DNA of 63,280 bases, filler included, from Asterionella formosa (lineage: Eukaryota): the NCBI GenBank assembly GCA_002256025.1. It is 16 parts of 16 records of this genome, joined end to end, with 100 filler letters (N's around TTAATTAATTAA, not from the genome) between each part and the next. Parts side by side here need not be neighbours in the genome. Positions count along the whole stretch, not along the records: positions 32,677 to 48,897 come from NKIB01005032.1; 15 more parts are not named here. One strand, written 5' to 3'. Shown in pieces: positions 45,164 through 63,280 of this stretch (position 1 is the first letter of the stretch; the number at the start of each line of letters is the position of its first letter). Below the pieces are notes generated by a model, which was not told the origin of the DNA, ran no database searches, and saw nothing but the letters and a program-made list of their open reading frames with translations. A program made the position numbers and the translations under genes.

Positions 45164-46754
45164 GATATAGACAAATAGTTGGGATACTCAGCCAAGAGTT
45201 CATCATATCTATCGAGCAGATATCTGCCTACACAACAGTTAAATACGAGGAAATGTTGGTAGCCTCTAATCACAGTGACAACCATTACAAAATCTATTTC
45301 GTGCAGCTTTTTATCGCCCTTAAACCAACTGGTGACGGCGGTGAATTCGCTTTTGTTGAAAATTCTGATCCCGTTTTTTGATTTGCATCCTGGTACATCT
45401 TCCTTCAGCGTTTCAAATCAGTTATCTCACAATCATTCATTTCAAAAATAATTAGGTAAACGAGATAGACAACCACCTCTCCCCAAGAGATCATGACATT
45501 TTTAAGATGAACAGCACGCCTTCCTTACCACGAGACTTGGCAAGCACTAGTCTTTTGAAGGCTACCTATTGCTGCTTCCAAGCTAGTATTATGGCTACGT
45601 TCTACCTATAGGTCGAAGTGGGAGGGGTTACGGTCCTCATTCTAGATTAGCTAACTTGTTTGAACAACCTTATAAATGAATGACACCAGCGGCTTCACCC
45701 TTTGTCGATTTATTGTGCATCATTGCGAAAGGGCGGTGTACAGGACAACTAGGTCTACCTAAATATCCCAAAATGACATTATTTCCATTTCCCAGTAGCG
45801 ACTTTCCGAACTGTACCCTGATGACGCCAAGGAACAAAATAGTAAAACATCCACTTCAACTACTGGTACATAGGTCAACAGAATACCATGATGATGGGAC
45901 CTGTAACTAATGGTCGGCACCTGATGCTAGGTACCAGTGTATTCCTATGTATGTATTATCTAGCAACAGGGCAGGTGATCTGCTCCCACACCAGGTACCT
46001 GGTAACCAACTATGATTTGCACTGCCAAAGAATGAAAATGTTCCGTGCTGCGATTTTTTCTATAAATTGCTACATAATTACATAAATCACACAATCATAC
46101 CTGGTATGCACCGTGCCAGGGACCAGGGGCGTGGTACAAGGTACTGGTACCAGGTACCATACCGTTATTACAACTGATGACAGGCGATGTGCTGGTATAT
46201 GCCGTAAAGGATTTGAAAGATCCAACCTCAAACGGAAACCACCAGCTAGGACTACCGGTAGTACATATTAAGTAGCCACCATTCATGTTGATGAAGATTC
46301 GCTCGCTGATTCTGACGCACCCACTTGCCTTTGCAGCTGCTGTCTACAGCATTATTGAAACATTCACTCCTAGGTATCACTATCGGGCCTTTATATTTCA
46401 GTTTATCTTAGTTTGGAGACCTGATTATATGTATACGGGCAGACGGCGCAGGTGACTGAGAGTGCCAGGGAGCGTTCCTGAAGCGAACCCCAAATGAATA
46501 AAGAACAAGCAGAGGGCGAAAAACTTGAAATAAAATCTTTCCTTAAAGGTCTTGAGCCCATGACGCCAAAGCGGGTGACTTGATGTTAAGACGAGCTTTG
46601 TTGCGTAGAATTCTACAGAAAATGTACCGGAAGCGGCATTCACAACGTCAGTAAGCACCTGGGAAAGAAAGTGGTCCACAGAAATCACAGGTACATACAC
46701 GACCTCACAATCCATCAGCCCGATTGCTTCATGTTTTCTGATCTTCGTTGAACC

Positions 46755-48006
46755 ATGACCGCCGCCGTTGCTCCCCCCTCTCCGCTCCTTAACGAGACCC
46801 AAGGTGCTTCTGCGCTGGCACGTAAGCGTCGGCGTGAGATCCTCCAGACACTTCGGGCCACTTCCACCATTCCAGATGCCGCTGCTTCATCGGCTGCTGT
46901 CGTGCCTCCTCCTGCGCTTGTGTCTGCTACTGTTATCGAAGTTCCTGCGGCCAAGAAGCCCAAGCTTTGTATCAGCGCAGATTCGTTTGACTCGCAGTCG
47001 AAGAAGCCACAGATGAAGTATGATCCGGAAGTGCCCATGACGAAGGATGAGGCTGCTGTTTGGAGAAGGGAGCAACGACGCAAACGCAATCGGGAGTCTG
47101 CCGCTGCATCTCGCCAGCGTCAACGTGACCGGATTGCTGAACTCGAAGATGAAATGGACGGATGGAAGGCCAAGTACGCTGATGTCTTGGCCAAAATTGC
47201 ATCCCTCGAGCAACTCAAGGATACTGACGACCTCATCGATTCTCTACCCCATATTACGGGTTCGCCAACCAGTGCGACCAGCTATATGAACACCAAGGCC
47301 CAACTGCATGAGCCGTGCTCTTGCTCAGACAAGCACAACCCCGTCTCGGAAGACGAAGAAGAACAACAAGAATCTCCCCTAATAAAGATCTCTCGACCAG
47401 CATAGTCAAGATTTTTTCTACCTCTATTTCGATTGAGACGACCAAGTGGAAACATTAAAAATTGCATAGCGCAACAAACAAAGACTTTGTCCGCCGCGAC
47501 ACATGACCGGGTTTTACACAGCACTTGATTTTTCGAGTCTGTTCTAATGACAATATCACCTCCCGGGTGACATTGCAACCCCTCCTCCGACCCTGTCATG
47601 TTCACGTGCACTTTTTGTTGGTTGGAATGCTATGCAACTGATTTCCTCCAAGTCTACCAATCGTTGGGTTACTGTCGTTTCGACAGAGAGTAACCTTGAC
47701 GCACACGTTGTGCGTTCTACTCTCTTTCGGCACATGATATCGCCCTCTAAGATCACCATTCCAGCAGTGAAGATCACTGGTGAGATTATTGTTACTTCTA
47801 CGTCTTCCGACAATTTGTTGCTTCCTATCGCCCTTTGCCCCGATCCTTGTGTCAGCCATGTTGCCGACGATGATGACGACGAGCACGTTCAGGAGCTCCG
47901 CCGCAAGAACACCTTTAAGAAGGCGACCTTACCCCTGCTTCTGTCCGACGAAGACGCGGAAGCTGAGTTTGACTCGTTCCTCCTTGACGCTGCTCAGTGG
48001 CTCTAA
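46755..48006 (+). CDS. bZIP transcription factor, candidate HAC1/XBP1-like. Unspliced ORF 46755-47405 (216 aa); predicted spliced form 46755-47400 + 47765-48006 (295 aa)
   Basis: WRREQRRKRNRESAAASRQRQRDRIAELEDEM is a bZIP domain. The downstream +1-frame ORF ends in an acidic-hydrophobic tail, EAEFDSFLLDAAQWL. The bZIP call is firm; the splice model is inferred. Confidence 0.85.
47401..47764 (+). other. Candidate IRE1-type unconventional intron (364 nt), highly structured
   Basis: Bounded by hairpins with 7-nt loops, CAG|CATA (47398-47404) and CAG|CAGT (47762-47768). Starts with CA, not GT. Removal joins the two ORFs in frame. Confidence 0.7.
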
Positions 48007-48997
48007 TTTAAATGCAGAACCTATCTGTTCATTCCTTCACACTTTACCATTACTCCATATTCACTCTCACACGCAAAGCGCAACTGAATTCACTGCTACA
48101 TTAGTTATAATTATGTTGTCTAGAACATTTTAAGTTATGGCACTTCCTTTTTATCTTGATTTAGGAAACTAGTGACATTCAATCAAGAGCTGCGTCTTTG
48201 GATTCACCCAGCGATTCATTGGTGCGGGTGGACTTGCATGTGATTTACTCTCAATGTTGTGAATCCCAACAGTACGGTGCATTCAAAGCATGATGTAGAT
48301 AGTATTACAGTTCATCTAAAATCTTCGCCCGTCTCCTGTCGGTGCAAGTACCTTGGTACTCCCAGACACTAGACAATGGTAGATGATAGTACCTGGTACC
48401 GTAGGAAAGAGAAATCAGAATTGACCATTCAAAAAAATCATTGAGAGCAAAGCAAAGGCAGATAAAGATCGTGACGTTGCATCCCGAAGGTAACTGGACT
48501 GTCTCGTAAGTACTTAGTAACGACGTTTATGGATCACGATAGTAAGAAAAGTAGGCAAAAAAAGAGTCTCAGTCGACGAGGGATTGAGAAAAAGTTGGTA
48601 GAGATGGAGAAACTACGGCATCATAGTGATGCAAAGACGGTTGGTCCATGACGTAATAATAGTCAACGCAATGCGAAGTGGTAGTCGACAGTGGACGTGG
48701 CAAGAAATGTTAATCGACAAGTAGCAAATATGCTGGTACCGTAGTCTAATCGGGCAACGATGGCATCATGGTGATGCCAGGAAAGCTACTTATGACGTAT
48801 CTACGATGTTTACAAAAATCAAGTTTCCGAAAGTGACGAAAAAAGTGAGAAAGTAATGCATCAATGCTTACCGAGGTATTCTCCAGAGGCAGACTTCNNN
48901 NNNNNNNNNNNNNNNNNNNNNNNNNNNNNNNNNNNNNNNNNTTAATTAATTAANNNNNNNNNNNNNNNNNNNNNNNNNNNNNNNNNNNNNNNNNNNN

Positions 48998-50004
48998 GAC
49001 CCCACCGTCATGCGAACGATGAATCGACAGGACTTCCGAGTCCTGGCTGCCGTCGAAACAGGAATGCGCACTCACGAACTTGTTCCTGCCAACCTGATCG
49101 CGTCCATCGCTTCACTTCGACATGGAGGAACAGGAAAGGTTTTATCGAGCCTCTTGCGAGACAAGCTCCTATCACACGATCAGTCCTGTGGGTATGACGG
49201 ATACCGAGTTACGAACGCTGGTTATGATATTTTGGCCTTGCACAACTTGAAAACTAGGGGAATCGTTGCTGCTCTGGGCGATAAGATTGGAACTGGAAAG
49301 GAGTCAGATGTCTATGTTGCGGCATCACCCGATGGCAAGCAGATTGTTCTCAAGTTTCATCGATTGGGCCGAACGTCTTTTAGGGATGTCAAGAATAAGC
49401 GAGACTATTTCATGGTCAATGCCGACAAGGGAAATGCAAGTCAGCCGAATTCTTGGCTTTTTCTCAGCCGAATCTCGGCCTTGAAGGAGTTCACATTTAT
49501 GAAGGCCCTTCATCAGGTCGAATATCCAACTCCCACACCTTTGGCACAGAATAGACACGTGGTTGTTATGGCGCTAGTCAGAGGCATTCCTCTCTACCAA
49601 ATCCACACAAACAGAGTTTCCGCTGAACAAGCCGAGTCCATCTTTCAACAGTCCACCGTTCTTGCCTCGCGATTGGCACAACACGGCCTCGTGCATTGTG
49701 ATTTGAATGAGTACAACTTAATGGTGGATTTATCTGGTATTCAAGATAAGATCGCCGATGATAATGATGTCGCAGAACACTATGTGAGGCATTCGGGGTT
49801 GAGTGTCACGAGCAAGGGTGCATTGTCGGCTCACGGCCCGCTTCAGAAGCACGCAATTGACGGAACAGGTGAATTTGTCACTGAAGAAGCTCCCAAACCT
49901 GCTCAAGTATTGGCGAACGGTGAACCGCGACCCATTGTAACTCTGATTGACTTTCCTCAAATGGTATCAACCCGACATCCCAACGCCAAGGATTTGTATG
50001 AACG
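48998..50004 (+). CDS. RIO2: RIO2 serine/threonine kinase (partial, cut by both contig ends)
   Basis: DFRVLAAVETGMRTHELVP, YDGYRVT..GYDILAL, IGTGKESDVY, LKFHRLGRTSFR, HCDLNEYN and IDFPQMVSTRHPNA. Confidence 0.97.
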
Positions 50005-51435: not shown

Positions 51436-53425
51436 GTTGCTAGTTTACCACTCCGACTACCCCCAGTATATCACTTACTACCTGCTACTGGTGCTCTGTA
51501 TATATATATGATATATTGTTATTGTCATATGATGTACCGGTACACATGAAGAGCTCCCAACCAAAAAGGGGGCTTAAACAATTTGCCACCATAATCCTGG
51601 CGGTTATGACTTACACGGTACACGTAGTCGTGGAAAACAATGGACATATAGTGCATTGAGTATTTTCGAATTATTTATATGCAAGTATGATCATCTCAAC
51701 CATATCAGATGTTCCATATCGAGAGCGCATTTGAATTTTATAAATGTATAAGGCTTAATATATATATATATATATTTACAAATTTTATTACTATATTCAT
51801 GGCATGTATATTTTTGAAATCGTTCTGTCATGTTAACAAACAATGCCTGCTGCTTCATGAAAAGATACGTCGTAGTAAAGCACATGACAAGAAAAAAAAG
51901 TTTTCGCAATACATTACGAAAAACATTGTGACTTCGATACATTGGGCCTTCGAAGGATGGAGAATGTTTAAGGTAATGAAGCCATCAATGTGGTACTTGG
52001 ATGACAATCGTTGGGAGGCAGGCAGGACAACAATTCTTCTCGTCATTAGGGCCTGCCCGGAGTTGAAAAGCAAGTTGGAGAATGTCTCTATTGCGATGTT
52101 GGAGTCATTCATGTCATGATGGCTGATCGAGTGCCCACATCAACTTACCGCTGTATAACTGACGAGACCCAGGAGGGTGATGGAGAATCGGAGATGGCAT
52201 ATTCTATTAACCTCCCGANNNNNNNNNNNNNNNNNNNNNNNNNNNNNNNNNNNNNNNNNNNNTTAATTAATTAANNNNNNNNNNNNNNNNNNNNNNNNNN
52301 NNNNNNNNNNNNNNNNNNGGAAAACGAGGTAATATTTTCTAACCGTTTACCATTAAAAAGTATATATACATGATGAAAAATATATGAATGGCTTAAGACC
52401 ACTAAAATGCAAAATGAACGACTTAAAAAGTTGGATATCGCAAGAAATATCCTTCCAATTGTTAAAATGATTCATTTATCTAGTACTTGCATGCATTAGT
52501 TGACCTCTGTTCAAAGGGTTTTAAATGGGGTCGGCTGAACATTTTTCTACTTTTAGTCCAAAAACGGGGTAATATAGTGGTCTTAAGCAGTTTTTGACTG
52601 GTACCTGGTACCTGGTACCAGTACCTGGTACTACCAGACTTCACCGGATCTTGGTTCGGAGCGAGGCGGGCGGAGGAAGAAAGTAGACTGCCGGGTACCT
52701 GGTACAAGGTACTTTACTACAATCTTGGGTACCAGAAAGTTGCGCTAATTTTGCTGAAACTTAAGATTTAGCTATCTTTATCCCAGATTAAAGTGTTAGT
52801 TAAAGCAAAATGAACGCAACTTGCGGTACGTGAAAATGCTGTACACGTCCAGTAAAGCAAACTGAGATCATTACGAGGAGAGGGACGCTTGAACAGCCAG
52901 GGTCATGATGGGAGGGTGTACATGATTGAATTTAACTCTTGCTCAACATCGCAAACAACCATCATCCCAAAACAATTCAAGCTCCAGTAACTGGATCAAA
53001 GTCAACATGTATTCCAATCACAATTATTCTCGACAATACACCTTGTCTCATGACAGCCTTCCAAATCACGCAACCATTTCCCATGGTAGCATTCGACATC
53101 GAATATGACAAATGTGTCGACGTCGGTTCGTTCTTGCACGCTTTCTTCACGATACGTCATAGCGTCTTGTTCGGCTTGTGTTTATTTTTCATCCGCCGAA
53201 TTGGTCGAGAAGGAAAGAAGGATCTTGCCGAAATTCCTATCGATATTGCTGATGGATGTGAAAAACCAGAACTTAATCGAAAAATCAAACCAGAGACAGT
53301 GTCCAATTTGGCGTTGTTTGTTCTCNNNNNNNNNNNNNNNNNNNNNNNNNNNNNNNNNNNNNNNNNNNNTTAATTAATTAANNNNNNNNNNNNNNNNNNN
53401 NNNNNNNNNNNNNNNNNNNNNNNNN

Positions 53426-61710: not shown

Positions 61711-63280
61711 TTATTCTATTGTCAAGGGGGTTGGTAGCTACCATACCAGCACCACCTTTTCCCTCTGGTTTCCTCTGCAATTTTTATGTAAAACTGTGGT
61801 GTTTTATTTAAAATCGACCTTGTATCACGTTTTCCAAAAGCAACGCAAAAGAACGCGAAGTTCGCAAAAGACCGCAGAAAAATGTCTTAAATCCGGATTT
61901 TCTCGTTCGTTTGTGGTCTTTTCGTCTTTCGAACTCCTTCACTGTGATACTACCACATATACGATTTCTATGCCGTCCATTGGAAAAAATGTTCATATTG
62001 CTCCTGGATGTTTAATGCCTTTTCAGAGCTCAAATTCGCTTCTTTGACGGAATGACAGTTGTGCATACTATTCAAGAAGTACGCGAACTTCGCAGAAGGC
62101 CGCGCGACTACAATTTCTTTTGATTTTTGGTAAATAAACAGCGAGGTCTGTGCACGATACACGTGATGAATTTTTNNNNNNNNNNNNNNNNNNNNNNNNN
62201 NNNNNNNNNNNNNNNNNNNTTAATTAATTAANNNNNNNNNNNNNNNNNNNNNNNNNNNNNNNNNNNNNNNNNNNNCGAACGACTCCTCGTCAGAATCCAA
62301 GTCTTGGATATCCTCATAAGCAGTAGCAAGCTTGATGATGCCTTCCATCGACCTTTGATCGTCGTCGTCCAGTCTCATACATTCGGTTTGTTTTGATGTG
62401 TCTTTAACAACTGATTCAATTATTATTGCACAAAAAAATTATGTGCAGAGATGGGGCATATCGTAACGACACGGAGGAACAAAATAAAATCACATTGATT
62501 TGGGCCGTAAATTTTGCTTCTGCCATCAACGTTAGCTGGGGTTGCAGCATTCTTGTGACTTCGGAGAAAATATCGAAACAATAGCCATGTTCTTTGATAT
62601 ACCAGCATACCTTGATCAGTCCTGAGTCCTGAGCAAATGGCCTGATGGTGATGGAATGCAACTTGCTGGTTGAACTGCAGAACTGACGGTGCATTGGTTC
62701 TTTGTTGTCAGATGACCCCGAGGGAAACCCATTTTACAACCATCTACCAATTACAAATTGTTATTATTTTAATGATCAACCGGGCATTCTTTGCTCACAT
62801 CGACTACCTGGTAACTAGAAGTAAAATCTTGATATTTGTTAACCAGGATAACAAGAACTCCGGGGTACCTGGTAACTGGTACCAGGGTACTTGTACAGCA
62901 AGACAGGGTCACCAGGAGAAGAACATTCCTTCATCCATAGAGACATCAGAATCGAAGCATCCTAAACATTCGACGACAAAGTAAACGTTGTTTAGGATGT
63001 CGATGACGATTTCTATCATCCCTGACATTTCCGCAAGAAAAATAAATGTTTACCAGCAGTAAACCGGGACTACCCGAATCCTGGTACCACTCCTGATATC
63101 GGGTACCTGGTTCCTGGTATTTTACATACAGTACTTCCCATGCTGGCTATCGTGATTCTTAAGAACATTTCTCCGTGGGCATTTTGACTCCCACGACATT
63201 TTCCGGTTCAAATTACATGCAACCTTCGGCGTAGTCAAACGTTGTTGCTTTTTGGGGTGTTTAAGCCTGTTTTTCCAAAT

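Follow-up and report, generated by a model that had tools for sequence, protein, structure and literature searches.

A bZIP gene with an unconventional intron

The DNA considered here (the window) is a stretch of 63,280 nucleotides (nt) from the diatom Asterionella formosa (assembly GCA_002256025.1), within which the record NKIB01005032.1 carries, on the plus strand, a gene for a bZIP protein that is interrupted by an intervening sequence of 364 nt. This sequence is removed from RNA, its removal changes the C-terminus of the protein, and it folds into a dense, nested structure. We argue below that it is probably an intron of the IRE1 type, comparable to those of HAC1, XBP1 and bZIP60, and that its fold is a maintained RNA domain. 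The gene is arranged as follows:

46755..47405, plus strand: exon 1, the bZIP reading frame, with ATG at 46755, 216 codons ending ...KISRPA and, if unspliced, TAG at 47403-47405; RNA contigs span exon 1.
47401..47764, plus strand: unconventional intron of 364 nt, with the joint 47396->47761 in contigs of RNA runs X2 and X6 and a fold z-score of -5.84.
47765..48006, plus strand: exon 2, which in the spliced form completes the codon G|CA and continues for 79 codons (VKITGE...FDSFLLDAAQWL) to TAA at 48004-48006.

The 216-residue frame contains a Pfam bZIP_1 domain at residues 103-153 (E 1.1e-8), and the intron begins at codon 216, downstream of that domain. Excision of 47401-47764 joins G47400 to the CA at 47765-66, and the TAG at 47403 gives way to a tail of 79 residues rich in D and E. 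The C-termini of 15 related proteins reflect both states of the message: eight end in ...ISR[PQ]A, two are a few residues longer, and five run from ...ISR[PQ]A-VKI... to ...LLDA.[QE]WL. These five, mostly derived from transcriptomes, are the spliced form, and the acidic tail is kept in them as well as in the 21 spliced loci described below. In the spliced message the stop is gone and the frame ends instead in an acidic tail that relatives conserve, to which we would ascribe an activating function. The unspliced protein of 216 residues has no evident hydrophobic or membrane segment, as judged by eye and not by computation.

Removal of the intron from RNA

The RNA evidence consists of contigs from four runs (X1, X2, X6 and X7) belonging to four studies, which are environmental or carry no stress label, aligned to positions 46500-48200. 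The joint 47396->47761, which skips 364 nt, is present in two contigs from two studies, one from run X2 at depth 21.8 and the other from X6 at depth 71.9; depth is an unreliable guide in contigs, and no weight is put on ratios of spliced to unspliced RNA. Unspliced contigs that bridge a junction are present in all four runs, and are the only form in X1. The placement of the cuts is ambiguous by 6 nt because the word CCAGCA stands at both ends of the intron, and none of the seven possible registers gives GT-AG, GC-AG or AT-AC (the ends are listed as CC..TT). From the coexistence of spliced joints and intron-bearing contigs it follows that the segment is cut out of RNA precisely, with ends that are not spliceosomal, and that some of the poly(A) RNA stays unspliced. 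An earlier note on this DNA had called the segment a bZIP intervening sequence from its letters alone, and the RNA joint and the absence of canonical ends bear this out.

Two further features of the transcripts may be mentioned here. A 121-nt contig of X2 (record 6, depth 64.8) matches 24-25 nt at 47386-47409 and at 47759-47783, with 55 unrelated letters between; it implies an insert of about 70 nt, and may come from another species with a much shorter intron or be an assembly chimera of conserved site sequences. An upstream reading frame of six codons (ATG...TGA) occupies 46731-46751 and ends 4 nt 5' of the main ATG; it is transcribed as part of the leader, the RNA contigs having their starts at 46698 and 46718, and the relative found in X7 differs inside it at 46734 and 46736.

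Fold of the intron

On the plus strand, the intron has a predicted folding energy of -109.4 kcal/mol, compared with -79.11 +/- 5.19 for dinucleotide-preserving shuffles (z -5.84; none of 100 shuffles as good). Adding 30 nt of exon on each side gives z -6.11, while the opposite strand of the same segment folds less well (z -3.27). A second script using 30 shuffles gave z -8.4 for the same intron, the difference arising from the estimate of the standard deviation. Against the background of 86 other 364-nt windows from the 63 kilobases (kb), with a mean z of -0.59 and a standard deviation of 1.36, the intron stands out: four of the 86 lie below -3 and one below -5. Thus, the earlier claim that this sequence folds more densely than ordinary sequence stands. 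The minimum-free-energy fold comprises the following elements:

47430..47511, plus strand: 5' strand of P1, a long irregular closing helix (minimum-free-energy fold; inverted repeats I1, I2 and I4).
47590..47663, plus strand: 3' strand of P1 (fold; inverted repeats).
47518..47542, plus strand: P2, the core hairpin, composed of ACAG, a bulged C47522, ACUUGA, loop UUUU, UCGAGU and CUGU (covariance model, pair counts and sequence pattern).
47543..47548, plus strand: single-stranded linker UCUAAU (YCUAAU), from alignments A3 and A6 and unpaired in the fold.
47548..47577, plus strand: P3, a variable hairpin directly after the linker (fold; most other introns have a hairpin at this point, as do the consensus folds of both clades).
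47667..47745, plus strand: 3' hairpin domain, AGAGAGUA/UACUCUCU enclosing GACGCACA/UGUGCGUU (fold).

P1 extends over nt 30-263 of the intron, with the compact hairpin of the 3' domain downstream of it. The helices of P1 pair 47430-42 with 47652-63, 47448-54 with the TTTCC side, 47462-70 with 47629-37, CAACAAACAAAG with CTTTTTGTTGGTTG, and 47501-11 with 47590-601; a mechanical scan for inverted repeats also recovers the main arms. The inner hairpins fall at 47518-42 and 47548-77, and a further hairpin, ACGCACA/TGTGCGT, at 47699-715. Most of the pairings that the earlier note had read directly from the sequence are thereby recovered, namely the nested helices, both inner hairpins and the hairpin at 47699-715. 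The exception is GGTTAC-TGTCG/CGACA-GTAACC (47667-95), which is absent from the best fold, being displaced by AGAGAGTA/TACTCTCT enclosing the 47699-715 hairpin. A natural variant in X6 and X7, 47694 C>G, would break the 47667-95 pairing and is unpaired in the best fold; indeed, the variants at 47684, 47694 and 47707 all occupy unpaired positions of the 3' hairpin domain. The note had also supposed that the structure brings the two cleavage loops close together, and the long helix in the predicted folds of the window and of clade B (see below) agrees with this.

Some neighbouring features were recorded in passing. The bases after the 5' loop, GUCAAGAUU (47405-47413), are complementary to AACCUUGAC (47692-47700) of the 3' domain; if formed, such a long-range helix would rival the stem of the 5' hairpin, and the 3' domain of clade B has GGUCAAGAUUG instead. 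Other well-folding 364-nt windows lie at 52481-52844 (z -5.5), 641-1004 (z -4.6) and 62721-63084 (z -4.6). The second of these contains a perfect 18-nt palindrome at 956-992, and a perfect 14-nt inverted repeat (52391-404/52575-588) has its second arm alone within 52481-52844. Runs of N at 48899-48998 flank TTAATTAATTAA, which has a stop in all six frames and looks like an assembly linker between scaffolded pieces.

A common plan among diatom introns

A search with the exon 1 protein recovered 802 proteins at E <= 1e-3 among 3628 candidates. Those relatives with a named source are diatoms (Synedra, Cylindrotheca closterium, Seminavis robusta and a Bacillariaceae genome bin), together with the diatom-bearing dinoflagellate Durinskia. 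A scan of metagenome records with an alignment of related proteins then provided 80 loci, or 81 sequences including the window: 52 are unspliced with both cut sites placed and represent 47 distinct introns, 21 are spliced transcripts, and eight are truncated or unresolved. Proteins 75-77% identical to that of the window (P0002-P0004) are not among the 80 loci.

The 47 distinct introns are between 217 and 787 nt in length, and none is shorter. Their lengths fall into all three classes modulo 3 (16, 18 and 13 introns), so that a shift of frame is not needed; stops within the intron suffice. Among the 38 distinct introns scored against 30 shuffles each, 36 have z below -3, with a median of -6.07; this set excludes L067 (787 nt) and eight introns found later. 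The orthologous introns are, in short, all long and mostly strongly folded. They are otherwise unalignable in sequence between clades, while sharing a common plan. Each cut site has a candidate short hairpin with a 7-nt loop. A leader of about 25-35 nt precedes P1, a long irregular helix that spans 0.5-0.95 of the intron and has a branched apex. At this apex is a three-way junction with the near-invariant P2, the linker YCUAAU and the variable hairpin P3. One or more 3' hairpins then lead to a conserved unpaired tail, ...AAGAUCA..UCCAG. The window follows this plan, and its stretch from GUAACC to the tail exceeds that of its nearest kin by about 50 nt.

Covariation and placement of substitutions

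Two sets of seven introns could be aligned. Those of clade B are 70-94% identical and, aligned with 25-nt flanks, give a consensus of 122 pairs, in which 94.5% of cells pair, as against 92.1 +/- 0.4 when shuffled. Both sides have changed in 17 pairs, compared with 6.8 +/- 1.8 after shuffling (none of 500 shuffles reaches this number) and 1-4 when partners are slid. The consensus of clade A contains 71 pairs, with 92.5% of cells paired (85.3 +/- 0.8 shuffled) and 22 pairs changed on both sides (8.8 +/- 2.2 shuffled, none of 500 reaching it; 4-7 with slid partners). P1, P2 and P3 covary in these two clades, and P2 also does so across clades; the covariation check that the earlier note had proposed thus came out in favour of the corresponding helices, in two sister clades.

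Because close relatives are absent from the 80 loci, P1 of the window can be tested only through the variants found in run X7, which contains a relative 95-99% identical with 10 substitutions in the intron. Eight of these 10 fall on unpaired positions, though 238 of 364 positions (65%) are paired (P ~0.004). On the X7 variant the window fold costs 0.5 kcal/mol, while 200 random sets of 10 substitutions average -97.9 +/- 4.1 and none of them matches the variant. The fold is under selection in the two clades, and the placement of these substitutions suggests the same for the window.

A conserved core hairpin

P2 is the first of the inner hairpins, and the earlier note had not set it apart from the others. 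Its outer words, ACAG-C and CUGU, flank a variable stem-loop in 42 of the 47 distinct introns by pattern; in the window this plain pattern occurs once, where 0.01 occurrences are expected. When 26 distinct hairpins drawn from several clades are aligned with MAFFT, 91.5% of P2 cells are paired, compared with 76.4 +/- 1.5 after shuffling (0 of 500 shuffles) and 28-44% when partners are slid; 52 cells show double changes, where shuffles give 15.8 +/- 4.8 (again 0 of 500). The second inner pair alone is U-A in 12 hairpins, C-G in 10, U-G in two and unpaired in two.

We built a covariance model, R1, from 23 hairpins, excluding the window, which describes ACAG, the bulged C, an A-U pair, the variable stem-loop, CUGU and YCUAAU. 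It matches the window at 47513-47551 with 35.5 bits (E 2.4e-8), and its only other match in the 63 kb is stemless (E 0.26). Across the 80 loci there are 47 matches. Of these, 44 come from the 51 unspliced loci, are all intronic and start at 0.25-0.39 of the intron length; the remaining three belong to truncated unspliced loci, and spliced transcripts contain none. Both clade consensus folds place P2 in a junction closed by the inner end of P1 and followed by the variable hairpin P3. The outer helix of P2 and the linker are invariant and do not covary, which points to recognition of sequence and not of shape alone. Rfam 15 produced no match at E <= 10 for 46500-48300, as the earlier note had wished to check, and none at E <= 1 for 14 related loci (26,100 bases).

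The word CAGCA is found three times in the region of the window's intron, at 47398-47402, at 47519-47523 in the 5' strand of P2, and at 47762-47766. An interior word YAGCA is present in 44 of the 47 introns, on average 1.28 times per intron, compared with 0.57 in shuffles. We considered the CAGCA of P2 as a third IRE1 site and rejected it: three closing pairs around a 7-nt loop are found there in 10 of 42 cases, as opposed to 42 of 47 at the true sites.

Cut sites and pairings around the junction

The ends of the intron are occupied by three elements:

47395..47407, plus strand: 5' cleavage hairpin, a GAC/GUC stem with the 7-nt loop CAGCAUA, cut after G47400 (sequence; alignment of 36 loci).
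47759..47771, plus strand: 3' cleavage site, UUC, loop CAGCAGU and GAA, cut after G47764 (loop and flanking-pair counts).
47746..47764, plus strand: conserved unpaired 3' tail, CUCUAAGAUCACCAUUCCAG (alignment of 36 loci).

Known IRE1 substrates are cut after the third base of a 7-nt loop, CNG|CAGN, that is closed by a stable stem (PMC8674358). At the 3' site the loop is C-N-G|C-A-G-U in 47 of 47 introns, matching this consensus. The 5' loop departs from it: G-1 is present in all 47 introns and C-3 in 29, while G+3 is found in three (the window has CAG|CAUA). At the 5' site, 42 of 47 introns have standard pairs at all three flanking positions, and the count at the 3' site is likewise 42 of 47. 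Three loci (L063, L065 and L066) have U as the first intron base, giving loops CAG|UAUA or CAG|UACA and an unspliced protein that ends ...ISRPV, so that position +1 of the 5' site is not fixed.

Exon 1 has a palindromic GAUC word at its end and exon 2 has one at its start, with a further one in the intron tail; their pairings are mutually competing, which is why two-strand folds of the junction gave differing best structures. The GAUC of the tail can pair with AGAUCU of exon 1 or AGAUC of exon 2. When the window is folded with its flanks, exon 1 (GAUCUC, ACCAG) pairs with exon 2 (CUGGU, GAGAUU); in clade B, AUGAUCU of exon 1 pairs with AGAUCAU of the tail in 98% of cells, six of these seven pairs being invariant. 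A hairpin between the exons was also tried on 19 distinct spliced junctions, where its consensus is only -1.8 kcal/mol, too weak to claim. Exon 2 itself opens with a 6-base-pair hairpin, CAGUGA-AGA-UCACUG (47765-47779), which competes with the 3' loop and is predicted in many, not all, relatives.

Interpretation and rival explanations

Splicing of a bZIP message by IRE1 is the oldest branch of the unfolded-protein response and is documented in animals, fungi, land plants and Chlamydomonas. Our literature search, with most subscription journals outside its reach, found no report of IRE1 or of unconventional splicing in diatoms. We believe that the 364-nt segment is probably a diatom intron of this class, like those of HAC1, XBP1 and bZIP60, and that its nested fold is a maintained RNA domain, likely to serve as a scaffold and to display the core. 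Membership of the class rests on sequence, position and RNA evidence; removal of the intron is observed, while IRE1 would be the enzyme responsible.

In proposing how such an intron might be removed, we need to account for two cut sites that are 364 nt apart and of unequal quality. The fold would shorten the effective distance between them, and an IRE1 dimer or oligomer engaged at the 3' loop, which fits the consensus CNG|CAGN, could in that way reach and cut the non-consensus 5' loop as well. It has been suggested that dual cleavage is perhaps more efficient when both stem-loops are bound at once (PMC8674358). The GAUC words may hold the exons for ligation, and the core of P2 and YCUAAU is a putative docking site, whether for IRE1 itself, for a protein that targets the message to the endoplasmic reticulum (ER), or for the ligase. 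The lack, by eye, of any evident hydrophobic segment in the unspliced protein makes a role in targeting appealing, and the suggestion of IRE1 or ER targeting made in the earlier note is a live idea because a near-invariant core hairpin exists.

Several observations weigh against this interpretation. The structures of clades A and B are flattered, since they were predicted from the very alignments on which they were tested; more reliance can be placed on the double changes and on the controls with slid partners, and the latter partly answer this circularity. The covariation of P1 belongs to two other clades, and comparative evidence for P1 of the window comes from the substitutions of one relative, the window itself being without a close relative among the 80 loci. 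Two near-identical introns, L004 (z -1.6) and L005 (z -1.2), have folds within the range of chance, and seven of the 51 unspliced loci have no R1 match. The cut-site hairpins are weak. Over 36 loci, only the 3-base-pair GAC/GUC stem of the 5' site is universal, with an outer pair (GC in 32, UA in two) that is its one covarying pair; a longer 5' stem is modest, with 73.5% of cells paired compared with 69.9 +/- 1.1 when shuffled and 29-49% when slid. No consensus pairing is predicted for the 3' site over the same 36 loci, because the region is invariant and its stems are short, and free-energy folds favour a 5-nt loop or the exon 2 hairpin there. Finally, long and short HAC1 introns of Candida are reported to act alike (PMC6222058), and so length and structure need not matter.

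Among the alternatives, the one to which we give most weight, while still thinking it unlikely, is that the excised intron is itself the product, a stable and perhaps circular structured RNA that acts in trans and is served by the fold and the core. Across clades the words ACAG-C...CUGU and YCUAAU change little or not at all, beyond what a spacer or scaffold would need, and P1 keeps the ends of the intron near each other; IRE1 leaves 5'-OH and 2',3'-cyclic phosphate ends, which an RtcB-type ligase can circularise. However, the four RNA runs contain no back-joint and no free-intron contig, those intron contigs that reach a junction running on into the exon, and no Rfam family is matched; contigs cannot show absence, and this is a weak argument in that poly(A) and complementary DNA (cDNA) libraries would miss such species. 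Much less probable is an attenuator of the yeast HAC1 type, as the earlier note had raised, in which the intron, for as long as it is retained, pairs with the 5' untranslated region (UTR) of its own messenger RNA (mRNA) and prevents translation. In favour of this, the intron resembles that of Saccharomyces cerevisiae HAC1 (252 nt; PMC6222058) in being long, and unspliced poly(A) RNA is the sole form in X1. Nevertheless, a duplex between the region -80..+12 and the intron gains nothing in energy over shuffled sequence (z +0.97 for the window; 36 loci with a median of +0.22, two of them below -2), 65% of intron positions are already paired internally, and no block is needed to withhold the tail, because the unspliced frame ends at the cut site in the window and in many relatives.

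The structure might also be a by-product of inverted repeats, had a palindrome like a miniature inverted-repeat transposable element (MITE) inserted into an older intron. The arms at 47430-47511 and 47590-47663 do resemble an inverted repeat, long and imperfect; the introns of relatives differ in length (217-787 nt), and from GUAACC to the tail the window is about 50 nt longer than its nearest kin. We regard this as very improbable, given that blastn recovers no second copy of the segment from the 63 kb (E 0.79 for the next match), that the long-hairpin plan and core motif recur in most of the distinct introns, which are unalignable between clades, and that the arms contain compensatory changes in two clades. 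The possibility of a multi-copy repeat, which the earlier note had raised against itself, finds no encouragement within these 63 kb. It is equally hard to credit a spliceosomal intron with unusual ends, or plain retention, with a functionless structure. Both forms do coexist in RNA, and the YCUAAU linker has what we take to be a resemblance to a branch-point word; yet GT-AG, GC-AG and AT-AC are found in none of the cut registers, the 7-nt loops at the two cut sites match each other, G preceding the cut at either end of all 47 introns, and both the scores (z below -3 in 36 of 38 introns) and the covariation argue against a neutral fold.

Returning to an IRE1-type intron with a maintained fold, what is new is a known splicing switch in a lineage for which no report was found, with an obligatorily long and covarying fold and a new conserved RNA motif. 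The locus gives RNA-level evidence of such a splice in a diatom, and its family provides a set of long introns in which the fold covaries around a core that does not change; together they offer a handle on the open question of what lets a long IRE1 substrate reach the ER membrane, be recognised and be cut at both of its widely separated sites. We would tentatively go further and suggest that diatoms, and perhaps other stramenopiles, possess an IRE1-bZIP switch in which the intron is obligatorily long and folded, and in which the P2 core is an RNA address that replaces the peptide targeting of XBP1u and bZIP60u and compensates for a non-consensus 5' site; or else that the excised intron is a regulatory RNA. 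Were either the address or the regulatory RNA to prove real, it would represent a new RNA family and a new solution in the most conserved branch of the unfolded-protein response. Since the spliced and unspliced forms can be read from metatranscriptomes, the locus might also serve as a natural stress reporter for ecologically dominant algae.

Comparison with known systems

The structural features of the diatom intron have partial analogues in known IRE1 substrates. As in HAC1 of S. cerevisiae (252 nt; PMC6222058), a long unconventional intron in a bZIP mRNA is located downstream of the bZIP domain; the unspliced mRNA persists, the C-terminus changes, and the cuts fall in small loops after G. 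The yeast intron acts by pairing with the 5' UTR (PMC8881652), whereas the diatom intron pairs with itself around a conserved three-way-junction core and has no detectable pairing with the 5' UTR. Its 5' loop also differs, lacking G at +3 in 44 of 47 introns.

The HAC1 introns of CTG-clade yeasts provide a parallel in length, ranging from 152 to 848 nt with 626 nt in Candida parapsilosis; like the diatom introns, they comprise hundreds of nt, differ in length between related species and have hairpin loops at both sites (PMC6222058). Unlike the diatom introns, they have no conserved internal structure reported in the available part of that paper, where the term 'secondary structure' has 0 occurrences. 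Across budding yeasts the range is 19-848 nt, apparently without effect on function, and introns of 19 nt coexist with long ones in the CTG clade (PMC6222058). By contrast, the 47 introns of the diatom type are all at least 217 nt long.

In yeast, the mRNA of HAC1 is directed to foci of Ire1 by a bipartite RNA element in its 3' UTR. The diatom core would be analogous in idea, as a stem-loop of invariant sequence that may recruit the unspliced mRNA to IRE1. The two differ in that the yeast element is in the 3' UTR and unrelated in sequence, while the diatom core is intronic.

In land plants, the bZIP60 intron is 23 nt long and the unspliced protein, bZIP60u, carries a membrane segment. Plant bZIP60 (PMC3216516) and CrbZIP1 of Chlamydomonas (PMC13545648) resemble the diatom gene in being bZIP factors of photosynthetic eukaryotes that are activated by IRE1 splicing, and are unlike it in having short introns, no long structured intron being described for them.

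Metazoan XBP1, with an intron of 26 nt between twin stem-loops, differs in several respects: the window's intron is about 14 times longer, its 5' loop is off consensus, it contains an internal conserved domain, and its junction hairpin is weak (-1.8 kcal/mol consensus). Nonetheless, the 3' loop fits the same CNG|CAGN rule in all 47 diatom-type introns, and pairings of the GAUC words between exons, or between exon and intron, could hold the exons together in the manner of the XBP1 'RNA zipper' (PMC4687415).

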